A DNA stretch of 64,000 nt from Microthyrium microscopicum (taxonomy: Eukaryota): the NCBI GenBank assembly GCA_010405405.1, contig MU004238.1, positions 321,530 through 385,529 of the forward strand, written 5' to 3'. Below are positions 4,783-14,151 of the stretch, in pieces (the stretch's first letter is position 1; the number at the start of each line of letters is the position of its first letter). The translations under genes were made by a program, and so were the position numbers. The notes beneath the pieces were generated by a model. That model was not told the origin of the DNA. It made no database searches and saw nothing but the letters and a program-made list of their open reading frames with translations.

Positions 4783-6006
4783 TATGATGAGTCGAAAGGG
4801 AATCCCTTCAACAAGTGGTAGCTGGGACCACCAAGTATAGATGAATGGATGTAACAGCGCGGCAAATTGAATAATGAGAGAAAGAAAAGATGAAGTCGAG
4901 GAAGACTGGAGATATAAAATACTGTGATGCTAAGAAGGAAGGAGCGACCATCGTTAAGGTGACAAGATGGAAGGCGCGGGCCGATGAACATCGAACATGA
5001 TTCAAGGCTGGGAAGGAGCGAACGACCTTTGGAAAGAATAATGAAGGAACGAAGGAACGAAGGGAGGACGTTGCGGTCTAAGGAAGGCGTCGGCAACAGA
5101 CCCGCAGCCAATCAACAGCTAGCAATGCATTTAGATTATGTGGACAAAGTAATTCGCCAATTGCTCTTTCCCTGGCAGCTTGACAGCCTGAAAGGTGAGA
5201 GTCGTGGTTGCTAAAGTCAGCCTGATTTATTGTATCGAGCAACATGCGCCTGCCATTATTATTCTATGTTTATTATGTTCAAAAACGTAGAGCGCGTTAC
5301 CCGATATACCGTGTATTTATCCTAATATACACTGTAACATCAGATGTAAATCTCACTCAAGGAAGTCAATTTGATATTGATACCTCGAGTCTCTACTCCC
5401 AGTAATTCAGAAGACGTACAATTATTCAAAGTCGATGGAGATCATCTGTTGTACCAGCCCTTCAGATTCATGCACCTCTACACACCTCATCATCCAGACT
5501 AAATACTAATCCAAACTCTGCTCACAACTTTCTACACTTCGCTATAAACGTCTTGCCGACAATATTTGCCACAAGTACAGTCGCATAGGCCATCTACGGT
5601 ACACGCGATCCAACTTATTGCCTGACAGCTGCTTCCTTTTACCAAACATCCATCACCGCTACTCTGTCCGCCTCCGTTCTCTCGCAGCCTTGCCCGTCTT
5701 GCAACACGGAAATACCTCGCCTCTTACTTTCTTACACTCTTCCCATCTCTTTCATACATTTCTTTACCAACAAAACAATACCATCATATACAAGGATTAT
5801 TATAGACAACTGTAATCCCAAACACCCCCAACCCATCTCACCCTTTCCACCATTGCGGACCCACGCCACCAAAACAGCCACATCATTACTGCAACCAGTC
5901 CCTCTCCAGCAGCTCCTTTAACCTTTCGTCGATTAATACAGACGCTCGGGTCTGGAAGAGCTCGTGCTGGTTGATCTGTTCTTTACGTCACGACCTTAAC
6001 AAGTCC

Positions 6007-6084
6007 ATGCTCTCGAGTATTATTATTATTACTCCTGCAACACCTAACCATCTCTCCTTTCAACCAAGCATTCGCGTTCAATAA
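6007..6084 (+). promoter_or_regulatory. Candidate uORF (25 aa, MLSSIIIITPATPNHLSFQPSIRVQ) in the SFP1 leader
   Basis: The only plus-strand ATG between about 5473 and 6839. Whether it lies in the transcript is unknown. Confidence 0.4.
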
Positions 6085-6839
6085 TCACCATCTTCCGCTC
6101 CACCAAGGCTACCATCCACTCTACGCGCCATACCCATTAATTCACAATTCACGGGCAACTTGACGGTTCGCCCTTATTCAGCTCACGGTAACTCTATTGC
6201 TTGCTACAGCCTATACTGTAGTTAGCGGCGAATCGCGGAGTACCTACCATCCAAGTTCGCGCAGGTCGCTAAATAATCCTCAGCCTTGAGCGTCGTCGTC
6301 GCTGCAACTACTCAATCGACTCGACAGCACACACCCTACCTCGGGACTATTGTGACTGGCTACAATAATAAACCCAGCACAGAACTCTTGCATCACCTCC
6401 ACTCACCTGCACTGGTTCCACGCACCCAGTGCTTCCTGCACCTTGTCAACCTTCTTCCCTAATTATTTCCCCAAAAACCGTGAAACTGGAGTCCTCACAG
6501 ACACCTCCTCCTCTTTCCTACTCTCCTTCCATCAGCGACAAGGGCCGAGCAGGCACTTCCGATAGTACTCCGATAACAACTCCAAAGACCACCCACGCTA
6601 CTTGGCTTGCTTCAGGGCCCTCCAAGAAGCCCTTTGATCTTCTTGGGTGGCGACGTGAGCCAGGCGGCGGCAGCGCATACAACAGTGCTCATCCCAGCCC
6701 TTCTTTCGAGGACGACGACGACGACCTTTTCAACACTGATTGGCAAGCCAACGATTTCGAGGAGCCTTTTAGTGATATTGATCCGGGCTCTAATCGCGAC
6801 GATAAAGACTTTACGCTCTTTCCTGACGACGACACGGCC

Positions 6840-8918
6840 ATGAATTCCCACGCTACTGCCTCACCTATCGACATAACCACCACTCCGCGCCTATCCAACT
6901 CCAACTCGCCCCGCGCCACTACCTCAAACCTTACTTCAGCTCTACAAGAGGCCGGCGCTATCGGAGCCAACAACGTACCACTATTTCATGCCGAACCACA
7001 AAATGGCTTCGGAGCTTTACAACCCAATGATATGGGACGGAATGGCATGTCAGTTGGACGCAACGAATCGATGGGAAATATTTTTGGCTCATCATTCTAT
7101 GGCGCAAATAATACTCGACCCATCTCAATGCGAGACCGACCGCGACGTGAGTCCAATACTGGCAGCTTTCTGGGAGGTATGAGCTGGGGAGCCTCTTCCA
7201 TTAACGGAGGGGACTGGGTCAGAGACGAGTAAGTCCTTCCTTGATTTTCTTGTCACATAATTGTCGTCATTACTTGCATTGGCTGCATCTTGCGACCCAT
7301 ATCTCTTATCTTTCCTCGCTTTTTTTACAATCCCATCGCTATCACGTACTCGGAGCGATATTGGTATACAGTGCTGGCTGTGATTCACACACTGGTGACC
7401 AAGCTCTCTAAACACTGCAATCATTGTCTATCTACAATGGCTGGTTGTTTAGACTTGGACTTCTATGGCTTCTATCAGCCGGACAATCCTCCCGTGTCGA
7501 GGTATATGATTTTACAAATTTGCGATGCAACAGGAATACGCACACTACAGCAGCATGTGGCTAACTACGAGTTTACAGTGTCATGATGACCGGAACATCA
7601 CCTTCGACATTTCATCAACCATCATCCTTCCAATCCTCGTCTTACCTTCCCAAAATGGAAGCCAACTACTTCCGGGACTATTTTTGTTGTGGAAAGGTTC
7701 ATTCCAATATGCATGTCCTCATGCAACATCGAGAAGAGGCACACGGTGAAAGGCTGGAGGATATGCTTAACGAGCAGCAATTTTACGGAGGCCTGAGCTT
7801 TCCCCGTCAACAATCTATACCTCACGCAAGCCGTTCGAATCCACAAGCAGGTCCCTCATCTAGTGGTCAAGTAACCCACGGCTTTCAAGCAACAAGTAAT
7901 GCACCGCAATCAGGTCTTGCAACCATACAGGATGATCCAGTGGATAGCATGGACTTTGACGAGAATACCCTCCTTCCTCAACTACCAGCCTCTACGATGG
8001 CCTCCCAAAACTTTGGTCAGCAACAGCCGCTGCCAACTGCACCCACACCACATGCCTTCTCCCTTATGAGCAACAATCCCACCGTTTCATCCGTAAACAC
8101 GCCAACTCTCAGCACCCACCCTTCGACTCTACAGAATGCAGATTCATCTATACCAACGACACCCCTTGCTGATAACATGAACATAGGCTTCCAGCCGAAC
8201 TTGGATATGTTTGGCATGATGGATCCGAATGGCCTAGCTCCAGGCATGGGCCCGTTGATGCCAGATAACAACTTTGATTTTGGCATGCAAATGGGACTAC
8301 AGAACGACATTTCTGGATTGACTATTCACGATCCGGCCAAGCAGTTACAGACCAAGAATGGTACACTCGATGCTACTCAATTGCAATACGCAGCCCTAAC
8401 CAATGGTCAATTCATGATATCGGATGATGTCGTACGAGCTATACAACTAGCCCAGCCAGGAATTGCTCTGCCTGGAGCGATCTTTACAATGCCTGGTCCA
8501 GACCCGAAGAAATATGCATGTCCAGTCGTTGGTTGCGAGAAGGCTTACAAGAACCAAAATGGATTGAAGTACCATAAGACGGTAAGCTAAAATAAGTCTC
8601 CGGTGAACTAACGAATTCAGCTAATGAGCCTCCTAGCACGGACACCAGAACCAAAAGCTGTCGGACAACGGGGACGGAAGCTTTTCCATCGTGGACCCGC
8701 TTACTTCGGCACCGTATCCTGGAACTCTGGGCATGGAAAAGGAGAAGCCATATCGCTGCGAAACTTGTGGAAAGCGGTACAAAAATCTCAACGGTCTCAA
8801 GTATCACCGTCAGCACTCTCCGGGCTGTAATCCAGACTTGCCCGCTCCCCTTCCAGGTGGACTGATTACATTGCAACAGTTGCAAAACCTTCCAAAAGCC
8901 GGAGTCCCTCTGAGTTAG
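6840..8918 (+). CDS. SFP1: Split zinc-finger transcription factor Sfp1; exons 6840-7228, 7579-8581, 8637-8918 (N- and C-terminal extensions likely, see findings)
   Basis: Splicing restores 'GMSWG...[13 protein letters not shown]...[17 protein letters not shown]...H..H' and the split fingers '[24 protein letters not shown]' and '[21 protein letters not shown]'. Introns are canonical. Confidence 0.93.
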
Positions 8919-9218
8919 AAACAATTCAAAACAGCAGGCGGGACATATCGATGCATCAAATGCCACAAGGAATACTCCAATTCCACTGGTCTTAAAGCAC
9001 ATTTTCAATCTTATTCGCCCAGTTGCATGCCTTGTGGTGGATTGGCCAAACAGCATGATGTGTTAGATCTAAATGCGCCCTGGACTTACACAGGATTTCG
9101 ATGTCGACAAAGCGGAAGATTTCGATGCCCCAAATGCGGACTGGACTACGCGCATCGCGAAGGTCTTTATCGTCATTTCAAACTAACTTCACCAGCTTGC
9201 TGGCCTCTAGCGGCTTGA
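8919..9218 (+). CDS. In-frame 99-aa post-stop extension of SFP1 encoding two additional zinc fingers
   Basis: Directly after TAG 8916-8918 the same frame reads KQFKTAGGTYRCIKCHKEYSNSTGLKAHFQSYSPSC...FRCPKCGLDYAHREGLYRHFKLTSPACWPLAA-TGA. Confidence 0.75.
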   Translation, partial: KQFKTAGGTYRCIKCHKEYSNSTGLKAHFQSYSPSCMPCGGLAKQHDVLDLNAPWTYTGFRCRQSGRFRCPKCGLDYAHREGLYRHFKLTSPACWPLAA

Positions 9219-10618
9219 TCATCGTACTGCTGTAAAAAAAAATCCAACAGCGATATGCCTCTAGGCTTATGATTTTTCATTCAAGCTATACCATATCATC
9301 AACTTGCAAGCTCAACGAGTTATGTATCTCGCTGCTCGCCAAACTTTCTCGGTACTCAAAAGTTCAGTCCGCCCCTTTTACCTTACGACGCATGCAATCA
9401 TGTGGTATCAATACCGCGACACCCCAAATAATTCCCTATTACTACTCAACTCAACTCGGTATATTGTTTTCTTGTTTTTATTGCTCTTGCTCTGTTTATC
9501 GTGGATACCAAAAAGTTATTTATTCATTCAACCAAGATGGACATCGTCAGAATTAGACTGGGAACGGCGTTGTAGGAACTGGTCTCATTCAATAGGTGAA
9601 AATACCTATCACGACATGCATTACAAGGTCACGGCGTCTTCCCTTCCTGTCCTCTACTATGCCGGGCATGCAGAGAGGAGTTTATTCGCCATAACGAACT
9701 GGCACTGTTACCTGGGAAAGGAGTCTTGGTTTTGCTTTACTTTTGGAATTACTTCGCGTGTGGAATTTCGGTTTGGCTGTCTCTTTTTGGATAAGTGAGG
9801 AAACCAGATGGGGTTCTGAGTACTTGCTTCATGATTTTGAGACGGCTTTTTTCGCTCAAGTTCATTAATGGAGGTGTGATTTGCTTGTACTTTGATTAGT
9901 ACTCAGAATGATGCGGTATTCTTGTTCATAGAGGTTGGTTTATGGCAGCGGGAGTTTTGCAGCTGATAGACGACAGGCACTTGTTGCTGGTGTAATACGC
10001 TCCAGCTAACAAGGCTGAAATGCATATGATTCGTTTAATTGCTAGCACTTATCTGTGGTTTGAGAGTACATACATTGCTTCATTCTTGTGATATCACCAC
10101 TTGAGGACCGGAGATAAGGAGGAGCGGCTCAAGCCGCGAATAACCACCAAAACTGCTCCTTTGACCTGCCCCTTAACTCTGCTCTTTGATATTTTCCGCA
10201 CTTGAACACCAAGACCTTTTCAATTCATCGTGTTTCCAGTACATCATGATATTATTTGAATGTCTTAAAATCCAACAAAAGGTTACATGATTACAAAAAA
10301 TGGCCAGATGATTATGACATGCTCCAACACGAACACATGCACGCCGCCGTCAGATTGAGCCGACTGTAGCCGCCCAGCCTTATGCCTCAGTCGCCTATCA
10401 CAGCCCAGCTGGCTGGTTTACTACCAATATTTGTCCCGAAAGTATCGATGATAATGCAGTAAGCTTTACCGATCTGGTCGATCAGTAATGAAAACAATGG
10501 TTGGACGCGCTTGTTCTTTGTTCTCTTTAAATGCGGTCATATCCGCCCACCGTACCACCATCTACAAGCTGCATCTCTTTGACACGATAACCTTCACCTT
10601 GTATTCTTCAAACTGATC

Positions 10619-12331
10619 ATGACGGTGCTACTTGAGTTATTGGGAGAGGTCTTGAGCTCTCCACTGTTGATACTTGAGTGTTTGCTTGGAGCTGCGGTTG
10701 TCTACTTGGCGGTTGGTGTGGCTTGGAGGTTGACGTTTCATCCTTTGGCTGGATATCCGGGTCCGCTGCTTGCGAAGGTTACGGATTTGTATCTGGCTTA
10801 TCATGCTTGGAAGGGAGATCGGCATTTGGAGTTTTATCGCTGTCATCAGAAATATGGTAAGTACCTAGTCTCGTCGAAACTCTTCCTTCAAACGATCACT
10901 AATATTAATATTCCTACAGGCCCAGTAGTCCGACTAGGCCCAAACCTCCTTTCTTTCAACACCAGTACCGCCCTCAAATCAATCTACGGCTTCAAATCCA
11001 ACGTTCGGAAGTCCGACTTCTACACTGCCTTCCCAGCCAATAAGCAGACCACCAATGTCCACAGCACTATCGACAAGAGCCTCCATGCTCGCAAGCGTCG
11101 AGTCATATCGCATGCTTTTGCCGACAGCGCTATCAAAAGCATGGAGAAGTATGTTCTCGGCAACATCGATACCGCTTGCAACATCATATCCGATGACGTG
11201 TCCACGAAACGGAAGGCGATGGCTACAAACTACTACGCCGAAAAAACAGACTCGTGGAGCACACCACGCAACATGGCTCGCTGGGCCGACTGGCTAACGT
11301 TCGACATCATGGGTGATCTTGTCTTTGGAAAAGCATTCGGCATGCTTGAAAGTCCGCAAAATCGGTTCGCTATTGATCTCGTTAGCAGTGCTGCGAAACG
11401 GCATCTTATTGTACGTCGGTTCCCCGATCTATGAAACCACATACTAACTTCGATACAGTGCGGCACCCATCTTCCAATCCACAATTACCATCTTGATAAA
11501 CTTCTTTTCCCTGCCATCGCAGCCAAACGTACCGCTTACATGTCCTACTCTCGCGCCCAATCCTCCGCCCGCACGCAACTCGGCACAGACTCCTGTGACC
11601 GCAAAGACTTCTTCTTCCACTTACTCAACGCACATGACCCCGAGACCGGCAAAGGATTCAGTCCTGCGGAATTATGGGGCGAAAGTAACCTCTTCATCAT
11701 CGCCGGCTCGGATACTACCAGCACCGCCCTAGCCGCCACACTATTCTACCTCGTCCATGATACATCAGCGCTGAAGTCGGCGACGGCAGAAGTAAGGGCG
11801 GCGTTTGCGAACGTGAACGAGGTAGTAGCCGGTGCCACACTAAACGAGTGTGAATTCCTAAGAGCTTGTATCGACGAAGCCATGCGTCTCTCCCCTCCAG
11901 TCCCAGGTGCGTTACCGCGGAAAGTGCTGGAGGGCGGATTACTTGTGGACAACGTACATGTTCCAGCGGGCGTGGATGTTTGCGTTGCGCACTATGCGAT
12001 CCATCACAATGAGGCGTACTATCCTCGACCATTCTCCTATGAACCTAGTCGATGGATGGGCGATAGCGAGGCAGCACATGCAGCGTTTTGCGCATTCAGT
12101 GTTGGGCCAAGAGGGTGTATTGGCAAAGGACTGGCGTATGTGGAGTTGATGTTGAGTATGGCGCGGGTGCTGGTGCAATTTGATATGAGATTAGCGCCAG
12201 GAACGAGTGTGGGTGAAGGGAGGGAGGATTTGGAGGAGGGTAGGAAGAGGGGGACGGAGTATCAGCTTAAGGATACGTTTACGAGTATTAAGGATGGGCC
12301 GATGGTGCAGTTTAAGGGGAGAGAGATTTAG
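10619..12331 (+). CDS. Cytochrome P450 monooxygenase; exons 10619-10856, 10920-11410, 11459-12331
   Basis: N-terminal membrane anchor and HPLAGYPGP, I-helix AGSDTT, ExxR (EAMR), PERW-like PSRW, heme motif FSVGPRGCIG. Confidence 0.95.
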
Positions 12332-12627: not shown

Positions 12628-14151
12628 TCATGCCTCAGCTTGATGTCGCATGTGTCGCAGAAGTACACGCTCTGGTGCCGTGTTAGCTATTGTGACAATC
12701 GAAAGGGCCAGGATGTTCAAGAGTAGAGTCGAACGGCTTGGAAACCAATGTACTTACTTGAGGTCGCACCTGAAGTTGAGGGTGCCTTCTGTTGCGTTGC
12801 CAGTGTCAACCACTGTTGCAGCCATTCTGATCAAGTGTTAGATACTGCAACAAGCGAAGAAATCAAAGTCCTAGATAAGGTTAGGTACTTACCACGGTTC
12901 GAAGTCAGCGTCTGTCGCTTTGCCACTTCCTTCGAGGGTGTCTTCTGTTGCGACGCCAGTGTCAACCACTGCTGCAACCATTCTGATCTAGTGTTAGATA
13001 CTGTAACAGACGAAGAATCCGAAGTTTTAGATAACAATGGGCACCTACCACGGTTCATATTCGGATTCGACGATAGCATTTCTCGCTTCCCCACTTCCTT
13101 CGAGGGTGTTTTCTGTTGCGATGCCAGTGTCAACCACTGTTGCAACCATTCTGCTCAAGTGTTAGTTGCTGTCACGACGGCTAATGGCTTAGATAATGAT
13201 GGGTCTTTACCACGGTGCATATTGGGGTTGGAAGTGAGCGTCTGGCGCTTAGCAACTTCCTTCGAGGGTGTCTTCTGTTGCGATGCCAGTGTCAACCACT
13301 GCTGCAACCACTCTGGACGAGTGTTAGTTGCTGTAACAGAGACCAAGGCTGACATAACGATGGGCACTTACCACGGTTCATATTGGGCTCAGAAGTTGGC
13401 GGCTGTCGCTTTGCCATTTCCTTCGAAGGAGTCTTCTGTTGTGATGCCAGTGTCAACCACTGCTGTAGCCATTCTGGTTAAGTGTTAGCTGCTAATTCGT
13501 TGTGACAGACGCGAATTCCAATAGCTTATACAACGAGCTCAAACTCCCACAAGGCTAAATTACTTACCGCGGTTCGCAACTGGTGTCGCAGCCGGCATCT
13601 GTCGCTTCACCACTTCCTTCCAAAAAGGTCCCCATTCTGGTCCAGTGTTAGTGACCAATTTGCTGTGACAAACGGAAGACCAGAAATTGAGACAAGGAAA
13701 CCGAACACCCTCAAAGCCATGTTACTTACGGCGGGTCACACTCGGAGTCGCAGCTGGCGTCGCCTGCATGACATGAGCATCCGCCGTAGCCGTGGTAGTG
13801 AGGCCATCTATACGCTCGTCAGTGATTTTCATGCCATCTGTCTCAGTTGAACTCACCGGGTCCCAGTGTCCAGTCGATCTTTGGTGGGAACCAGCCAGTG
13901 CAGAGAGCTCCATTCGGGCAGCAGGCAGCACCAAGAGTGCCGACGGACCATGCTTTGGCGGTGGTTGAGCAGCAGCCGGCGCCGTTATTGGCCAGAGTGT
14001 AGGTAGTGCCGGAGGCTGTTGGGCAGATGCCAGTTGGATGAGGCTTGAGAGCTGGCTGGTAGGCGCGAGTTATGGTGGGTGCCGCGTCTAATGGGCTAGA
14101 GTCCGCAAGGACAGAGACGATGAACGCTAGGAGAAGAATGAAAATCTTCAT
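12628..14151 (-). CDS. Secreted Kex2-processed repeat-peptide precursor (~316 aa); exons 14151-13857, 13807-13730, 13636-13568, 13473-13372, 13312-13211, 13150-13049, 12982-12893, 12826-12758, 12671-12628
   Basis: Signal peptide MKIFILLLAFIVSVLA, a 6-Cys domain, then five EWLQQWLTLA(S/T)QQK units separated by KR. All eight introns are GT-AG and phase 1, mostly with a CTAACAC branch site. Confidence 0.85.
12758..13473 (-). repeat. Tandem exon-plus-intron repeat, five copies of about 160 bp
   Basis: Recurrent plus-strand motif TTCTGTTG(C/T)G..GCCAGTGTCAACCACTG..GCAACCATTCTG...GTGTTAG. Confidence 0.9.

Follow-up and report, generated by a model that had tools for sequence, protein, structure and literature searches.

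Sfp1 is a master regulator of ribosome biogenesis and growth. We analysed a 64,000-nucleotide (nt) stretch of the genome of Microthyrium microscopicum (GenBank assembly GCA_010405405.1, contig MU004238.1, positions 321,530 to 385,529 of the forward strand), referred to below as the window, with positions counted from its first letter. The Sfp1 homologue of this fungus lies in the window on the plus strand, and directly behind its TAG stop codon the same reading frame continues through two further zinc-finger units that resemble the last finger of Sfp1 itself. An earlier note, made from the letters alone, had drawn attention to this extension and had proposed that the stop is bypassed, preferably by sexual-stage mRNA editing. 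Here we describe the gene and its transcript, trace the origin of the two units and weigh the readings of the TAG that divides them from the gene.

The Sfp1 gene and the frame behind its stop

The gene at approximately 6400–8918 is the Sfp1 orthologue, with 994 further proteins matching it at E ≤ 1e-5, many of which are named Sfp1 at their source. Compared with a profile of the DNA-binding regions of 114 of 119 homologues, it scored 202.7 bits over profile positions 4–114, and it has two C2H2-type fingers, a conserved linker of about 40 residues between them and a C-terminal tail, as expected of the family. Finger 1 (C-x4-C-x12-H-x4-H, 8513–8645), placed by the profile comparison, is split by an intron. 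Finger 2 with its S-P-x-C-x-P tail (8748–8834, repeat unit A) was recognized by the Pfam model zf-C2H2 on residues 39–59 of P0001. The C-terminal tail of the annotated protein (8835–8915) is 36 residues long, counted from the histidine of finger 2 up to the stop, and the corresponding tails of the homologues have 32–54 residues with a median of 45 (119 of 120 measured). The public model (P0003, 426 residues, named hypothetical protein) is 100% identical to the last exon and ends at the in-frame TAG at 8916–8918. In its two fingers, linker and tail length the gene agrees with the Sfp1 family of split-finger regulators, to which Sfp1 of Saccharomyces cerevisiae and FgSfp1 of Fusarium graminearum (PMC11603076) belong.

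One public run covers the stretch (X1, share 0.95, marked 'RNA?', growth stage unrecorded), and we took it as spliced RNA because its contig skips two GT..AG introns. This single spliced contig of 4371 nt covers 5500–10247 on the plus strand, reaches about 27 nt further 5' of 5500, and agrees with the assembly in three pieces without any other letter or gap. The exons derived from it run up to 7228, from 7579 to 8581 and from 8637 to 10247. Intron 1 (7229–7578, 350 nt, GT..AG) is defined by a contig joint from 7228 to 7579, across which the frame of exon 1 (open from 6372) continues into exon 2 without a shift; intron 2 (8582–8636, 55 nt), also defined by a joint, lies inside finger 1 and has GT..AG ends when the cut is placed one position to the right. 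The TAG at 8916–8918 is unchanged in the contig, which reads A at 8917 with no A-to-G change, and no joint crosses the stop, the contig being continuous from 8636 to 10247, although rare forms are invisible in contigs. Contigs of this kind drop rare variants, leave transcript ends unmapped and may merge overlapping transcripts, and the run may come from the assembled strain. The contig runs about 1.3 kb past the TAG, and the whole 99-codon extension lies on it. The rest of the transcribed 3' region (9219–10247) has no long conserved open reading frame (ORF), no Rfam match and a GC content of 0.43.

Behind the stop, the Sfp1 frame is open for 99 codons (8919–9215, P0002) and closes with a TGA at 9216–9218; 0.53% of 20,000 shuffles of these 297 nt remained open in frame. 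The extension holds two units, E1 (8943–9032, repeat unit B) and E2 (9117–9206, repeat unit C), each with the ligand spacing C-x2-C-x12-H-x7-C and the S-P-x-C-x-P tail, and the TGA follows three codons past the tail of E2. E1 was identified by BLASTP, profile, substitution pattern and structural model, and E2 by profile, comparison with E1 and model. The Pfam model zf-C2H2 matched the extension in two stretches with 26.2 bits (cut-off 25.2, E 9.8e-6), and the extension remained below the cut-off of 27 for the C2CH model PF22995 (25.6) and for PF13894 (24.7). An exhaustive HMMER search of 1.84 billion representatives returned 70 matches at E ≤ 1e-3 (best 1e-12), all of which were multi-finger proteins. 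Further searches added nothing specific: a word-index search gave no candidate among proteins of 54–174 residues and, among longer ones, 59 candidates with none at E ≤ 0.01; none of 597 pattern matches in a metagenome scan was confirmed by tblastn; and the protein atlas returned generic C2H2 clusters only, with recognition below a useful level. A single-sequence AlphaFold2 model placed a strand-strand-helix fold in each unit at low confidence, with predicted local distance difference test (pLDDT) values of about 66–72 for E1 and 58–63 for E2, compared with about 80 for Sfp1 finger 2 and an overall mean of 53. By ligand spacing and predicted fold, E1 and E2 are putative zinc fingers.

The description in the earlier note was right in every coordinate and holds for the 99 open codons and for the two units with their ligand spacing. 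It had also argued that no separate AUG-started gene explains the first unit, and the first in-frame ATG (9027) indeed lies behind E1. An mRNA end before 9218 or an assembly error at the TAG, either of which it regarded as fatal to its proposal, did not turn up: the contig reaches 10247, and the RNA-derived contig reads TAG as well, which argues against a simple assembly error.

The transcribed 3' region 8919–10247 is unusually long and has no long ORF on either strand. Between the end of the contig, which is not a mapped 3' end, and the open frame of the next gene (from 10583) lie about 330 nt.

Origin and inferred past constraint of the two extra fingers

In a BLASTP comparison of the extension with the annotated protein, E1 and finger 2 were identical at 16 of 29 aligned residues (E 4e-6). 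The homologue profile aligned E1 at positions 67–96 (19.7 bits) and E2 at positions 66–95 (8.7 bits), which correspond to finger 2 including the stretch after its histidine. The profile score alone does not separate the extension from generic fingers, as its best single stretch reached 19.7 bits and controls reached up to 21.1. Unlike the score, the S-P-x-C-x-P tail does separate them. S-P-x-C behind C-x2-C-x12-H was present in both extension units and in none of the 630 fingers of the 70 best non-Sfp1 matches, and [SA]-P-x-C-x-P is present in 118 of 119 Sfp1 homologues. The likeness to Sfp1's last finger, which had been noticed by eye, was thereby borne out by alignment, profile and tail motif. 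That both units are diverged copies of Sfp1's own finger 2, and genuine finger-type coding sequence, is well supported by these comparisons, with finger 2 as the parent.

The three units start at 8748, 8943 and 9117, spaced 195 and 174 nt apart. E1 and E2 have 13 of 30 residues in common, with 10 of 30 codons unchanged and a DNA identity of 0.60. Because they share codon states unlike those of finger 2 and their DNA is 60% identical, we regard them as sister copies of a first finger-2 duplicate. Duplication of the whole module of finger 1, linker and finger 2, to which a second BLASTP alignment could point (27 of 91 identities, E 1e-4), was rejected because the profile places both units on finger 2 and both carry the finger-2 tail. 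Homology of the three inter-finger tails, including a pairing of the TAG with a TAC codon in the unit that follows, stays a suggestion, as the shuffle tests were not significant. Repeat-induced point mutation (RIP) was also considered as a source of the divergence and of the TAG; the 9 transitions and 27 transversions between E1 and E2 do not form a RIP-like pattern. From finger 2 to E1 there are 15 G/C-to-A/T transitions against 3 in the reverse direction, and from finger 2 to E2 there are 8 against 9. In poly-zinc-finger proteins, tandem C2H2 amplification takes place within the gene, with framework residues kept and other positions diverging fast. The head-to-tail copies found here are similar in both respects, but they are located downstream of the stop codon in a single-copy regulator that otherwise has strictly two fingers.

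The second histidine of finger 2, which stands three residues behind the first, is lost in both copies, and the cysteine of S-P-x-C is kept in both, as it is in 118 of 119 homologues. This pattern suggests that the cysteine is functionally constrained in finger 2 of filamentous fungi, possibly as a fourth zinc ligand of the C2HC type.

Between finger 2 and E1, the proportion of differing synonymous sites (pS) is 0.93 and thus saturated, and the proportion of differing nonsynonymous sites (pN) is 0.34, with 16 of 29 residues identical and all zinc ligands kept. When the 40 differences between finger 2 and E1 were placed at random, none of 200,000 trials gave 16 identities, and all four ligands survived in 0.15% of trials. 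For identity at this level to survive across saturated synonymous sites, protein-level constraint must have acted on finger 2 and E1 alike through most of the time since they separated. Between E1 and E2, pN is 0.41 and pS is 0.36, a ratio of about 1, and the differences avoid the finger framework: random placement kept all four ligands with P 0.005, created no stop with P 0.29 and left at least 13 identities with P 0.047, for a joint probability of 4e-4. These tests were post hoc and used a crude mutation model, and all of them point one way. We infer from them that the copies were translated for most of their history. The frame-0 codon score of the extension (0.036 bits per codon) exceeds that of every window in the 3' region (maximum 0.0) and the 95th percentile of off-frame windows (−0.019), but it lies below the 5th percentile of real coding windows (0.056), and the GC content at third codon positions (GC3) is 0.36 compared with 0.55 in exon 3. 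The intermediate codon score and the low GC3 are consistent with relaxed constraint.

Among the matches listed, none of 120 homologous proteins had a further finger (119 measured, one judged by eye); they end 32–54 residues past the finger-2 histidine. Because a hidden extension would not show in gene models, we also examined genomic loci. From metagenomes we collected 80 fungal Sfp1 loci with an exon 2 identity of 32–60%; 63 of them include finger 2, and behind it 59 continue for at least 300 nt and 46 for at least 900 nt. No further finger was found behind finger 2 in any of the 59 loci, within up to 1200 nt downstream and in any forward frame, and the seven pattern matches either hold stops or are not finger-like. 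A tblastn match about 640 nt behind the Sfp1 stop of one locus (L037, 5169–5231; also in L040 and L047), which shares 13 of 21 residues with the later half of E1 at E 0.004, was judged a chance match because stops interrupt all frames, paired cysteines are missing and the final cysteine is lost in the sister locus L041. The extension is absent from the approximately 180 other Sfp1 versions examined and, on this comparison, is lineage-specific. No other member of the family examined has extra fingers, in contrast to the two in-frame finger-2 copies behind the stop in M. microscopicum. The earlier note had made its proposal depend on conservation of the extension in relatives, and this was seen neither in the 59 loci nor in the 120 proteins, a sample of relatives none of which is close.

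Readings of the in-frame TAG

The reading we favour, to which we give a probability of roughly 0.4, is that fingers were amplified in tandem and that a nonsense TAG has recently severed the copies from the gene. In this lineage, the finger-2 module of Sfp1 would have been amplified locally to three units, and the two distal copies would once have stood in the reading frame of a four-finger Sfp1, with selection long maintaining them as zinc fingers. A genuine TAG now separates them from the gene; it falls within the tail of the first unit, at a place where the other Sfp1 proteins end too. The main product would be an ordinary two-finger Sfp1, and the copies would form the first 300 nt of the long transcribed 3' region. 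The TAG itself would be a nonsense mutation, either evolutionarily recent or specific to the sequenced strain, and the cut-off fingers would not yet have decayed. We favour a young stop because we detected no sign of bypass, the short product has the form of a normal Sfp1, and the codon usage looks relaxed; the tail of 36 residues, within the homologue range of 32–54, was likewise counted in favour of the copies being cut off now. That the copies are presently not translated is the least certain step of this reading. Were the TAG such a fresh mutation, the locus would capture a domain that was gained through tandem amplification of fingers and then lost.

Several observations weigh against a recent nonsense mutation. 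Such a mutation is a short-lived state, and catching one requires luck; by a rough estimate that was not computed, the ORF would be disrupted after a few per cent of neutral divergence. The lowered codon score and GC3 would need many substitutions after silencing, yet the 99 codons contain neither a stop nor a frameshift. The ligands have been kept since the split of E1 and E2, which is not recent (pS 0.36), and this fits an old, regularly bypassed stop equally well. The TAG comes from a single isolate, compared with distant relatives only, and transcript contigs are blind to rare edited or spliced forms. The amplification step is affected as well: the DNA of the three inter-finger tails is not significantly alike (shuffle p 0.20, 0.33 and 0.55), and a repeat unit that includes the tail would follow from the spacing alone.

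A second possibility, tentative but to be taken seriously when all mechanisms are considered together, is that the extension is a hidden DNA-binding module that is joined to Sfp1 only when the TAG is bypassed, giving a conditional four-finger isoform. A switch between a two-finger and a four-finger form fits the long retention of finger residues and the intact 99-codon frame on the transcript. The route could be regulated readthrough, a rare splice, or mRNA editing in a class where none is known. Should any condition still lead to translation of the fingers, the TAG would count among the rare stop codons that control access to an entire DNA-binding module, and the cell would be able to switch between the canonical two-finger factor and a four-finger factor with other targets or stability.

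Among these routes, translational readthrough is unlikely but the most credible. A fraction of ribosomes, possibly regulated, would decode the UAG and add the two fingers, which could alter DNA binding or stability. Programmed readthrough is known to add functional C-terminal modules, such as peroxisomal targeting signals in fungi, and the situation here is similar in that a functional-looking module lies in frame directly behind the stop. The extension is on the transcript contig, its finger residues bear signs of long purifying selection, a strand-strand-helix fold is predicted for both units at low confidence, and a stop that is bypassed would be expected to have an intact ORF behind it even when old. 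The surroundings of the stop argue in the other direction. Strong leaky contexts are UGA-CUA in fungi and UAG-CAR-YYA, and the bases that follow the TAG here, AAA CAA, match neither. No stable structure lies downstream, as the 120 nt from the stop fold with z +0.28 and 121 of 200 shuffles are as good; neither a leaky context nor a stimulatory downstream structure was thus found. The codon score of the extension falls short of 95% of real coding windows, and the module is a domain of the DNA-binding type and not a short signal as in known cases. A genome-wide peculiarity of TAG was considered and rejected, since the ORF pairs bridged by a single stop in the window show no excess of TAG (4 TAG, 6 TGA and 1 TAA, n = 11); most of these pairs probably reflect in-frame introns. 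No tRNA gene was found in the window, and no Rfam match in 5400–10400.

Adenosine-to-inosine (A-to-I) editing, the mechanism preferred in the earlier note, would convert UAG to UIG, read as tryptophan, in the sexual stage and yield the four-finger form in fruiting bodies only. We consider it improbable. The bases at 8915–8920 are U-U-A-G-A-A as that note had stated, and a U at −1 together with the UAG triplet matches the preference of the fungal editing enzyme (PMC11156358, PMC13123824). Hundreds of stop-loss edits have been catalogued in Fusarium and Neurospora and provide a precedent (PMC13123824). M. microscopicum, however, is a Dothideomycete (order Microthyriales) and lies outside the documented range of fungal mRNA editing. 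PMC11087585 describes A-to-I editing of mRNA in the sexual stage as common among Sordariomycetes, 'not found in Leotiomycetes yet' and independently evolved in Pyronema, and it places the origin of the enabling Ame1-Tad3 interaction in Sordariomycetes. The papers found on A-to-I mRNA editing that also name Dothideomycetes gave no report of such editing in this class, which they cite only in orthologue comparisons. The proposed hairpin survives in part: its arms (8911–8916 and 8923–8928) can pair with one G-U, but they do not form the minimum-energy fold, in which A8917 is a one-base bulge between two short stems and not part of a hairpin loop, and the local fold around the stop has no significant stability (z −1.74; 12 of 200 shuffles fold at least as well). 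The A that the contig reads at 8917 also counts against editing, weakly, as contigs drop rare variants. The class of the organism, the insignificant hairpin and the unedited contig together leave the editing mechanism unsupported.

Two known systems help to place this reading. Stop-loss editing in Sordariomycetes, such as that of DBF2 in F. graminearum (PMC13123824), resembles the present case in the UAG, the U at −1 and the open in-frame extension of the mRNA. It differs in that we are dealing with a Dothideomycete, with no edited base and no significant hairpin, and with a pair of folded-type domains, which is unlike the known stop-loss tails that are mostly disordered and destabilising (PMC13123824). 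The restorative editing of premature-stop pseudogenes in F. graminearum (PMC10776026) is similar in that an in-frame stop splits a frame whose downstream part is still coding-like, but it concerns another taxon, and the short product here is the canonical protein, whose basic function needs no restoring. If editing were the cause after all, fungal mRNA editing would be extended to a new class.

Removal of the stop by a rare alternative intron, joining the tail to the fingers in frame, is a very improbable third route. The stop is spanned by several GT..AG pairs whose length is a multiple of three and whose removal keeps the frame open, among them 8857–8934 (78 nt) and 8857–8937 (81 nt), so that the statement that no intron skips the stop was too strong as far as such pairs exist, and sound in that their donors are weak and no joint of this kind occurs in the contig. 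In the donor GTGGAC, the position-5 G and the position-6 T shared by both confirmed introns are missing; no branch-site match to the fungal consensus was seen by eye near the acceptor; the donor bases are Gly-Gly-Leu codons that recur in the next unit; and the single transcript contig, in which rare forms are dropped, shows no such joint.

Outside the bypass readings, the copies may never have been translated, a duplicated piece of the 3' end having landed behind the stop with its frame open by chance. An open run of at least 99 codons lies ahead of about 5.8% of the codon positions in the window, and 8 of 57 other Sfp1 loci have at least 76 open codons behind the stop with no finger. The ratio of nonsynonymous to synonymous substitution rates (dN/dS) of about 1 between E1 and E2 (pN 0.41, pS 0.36) also agrees with this reading. 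Against it, 16 of 29 residues and every ligand survive where synonymous sites are saturated relative to finger 2, random differences keep the four ligands in 0.5% (E1 and E2) and 0.15% (finger 2 and E1) of trials, and 0.53% of shuffles stay open. We regard an untranslated relic as improbable, since it fits the substitution pattern poorly. A separate small protein started inside the extension fits that pattern poorly too and is the least probable of all: a start at the in-frame ATG 9027 would yield 63 residues with E2 only, but this would leave the better conserved E1 untranslated, a reading of the sequence found no in-frame AUG or near-cognate codon between the TAG and E1 for a non-AUG start, no recorded protein of 54–174 residues is like the extension, and a contig cannot reveal a separate transcript.

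N-terminal part, leader and neighbouring genes

With its start at ATG 7583 in exon 2, the public model P0003 appears to miss a conserved N-terminal part. The translation of the exon-1 frame (6372–7228) aligns to the N-terminus of a long homologue from residue 23, with 107 of 263 identities (E 5e-34). The conserved part has the highest codon score of the gene (0.294) and starts some 360 nt before ATG 6840, which is the first ATG in frame after the stop at 6369–6371. A GTG at 6480 lies in an A-rich context (aaaaccGTGa) with A at −3, and this codon is a candidate that may serve as the non-AUG start of a long isoform, with ATG 6840, whose methionine is conserved in many homologues, starting a short one. 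The 1367-nt leader (5473–6839) holds a single ATG, at 6007, which opens an upstream ORF of 25 codons; 2000 shuffles of the leader had a mean of 13.7 ATGs and a minimum of 4, indicating strong depletion.

Downstream on the plus strand, a cytochrome-P450-like gene with a visible haem-binding cysteine motif lies at 10583–12331. Its two long frames are bridged by a single TGA at 11432, which is probably part of a short in-frame intron. It is followed at 12727–13488, also on the plus strand, by a frame of 253 codons with about four tandem cysteine-rich repeats of approximately 55–60 residues, each with paired Cys-Cys motifs.

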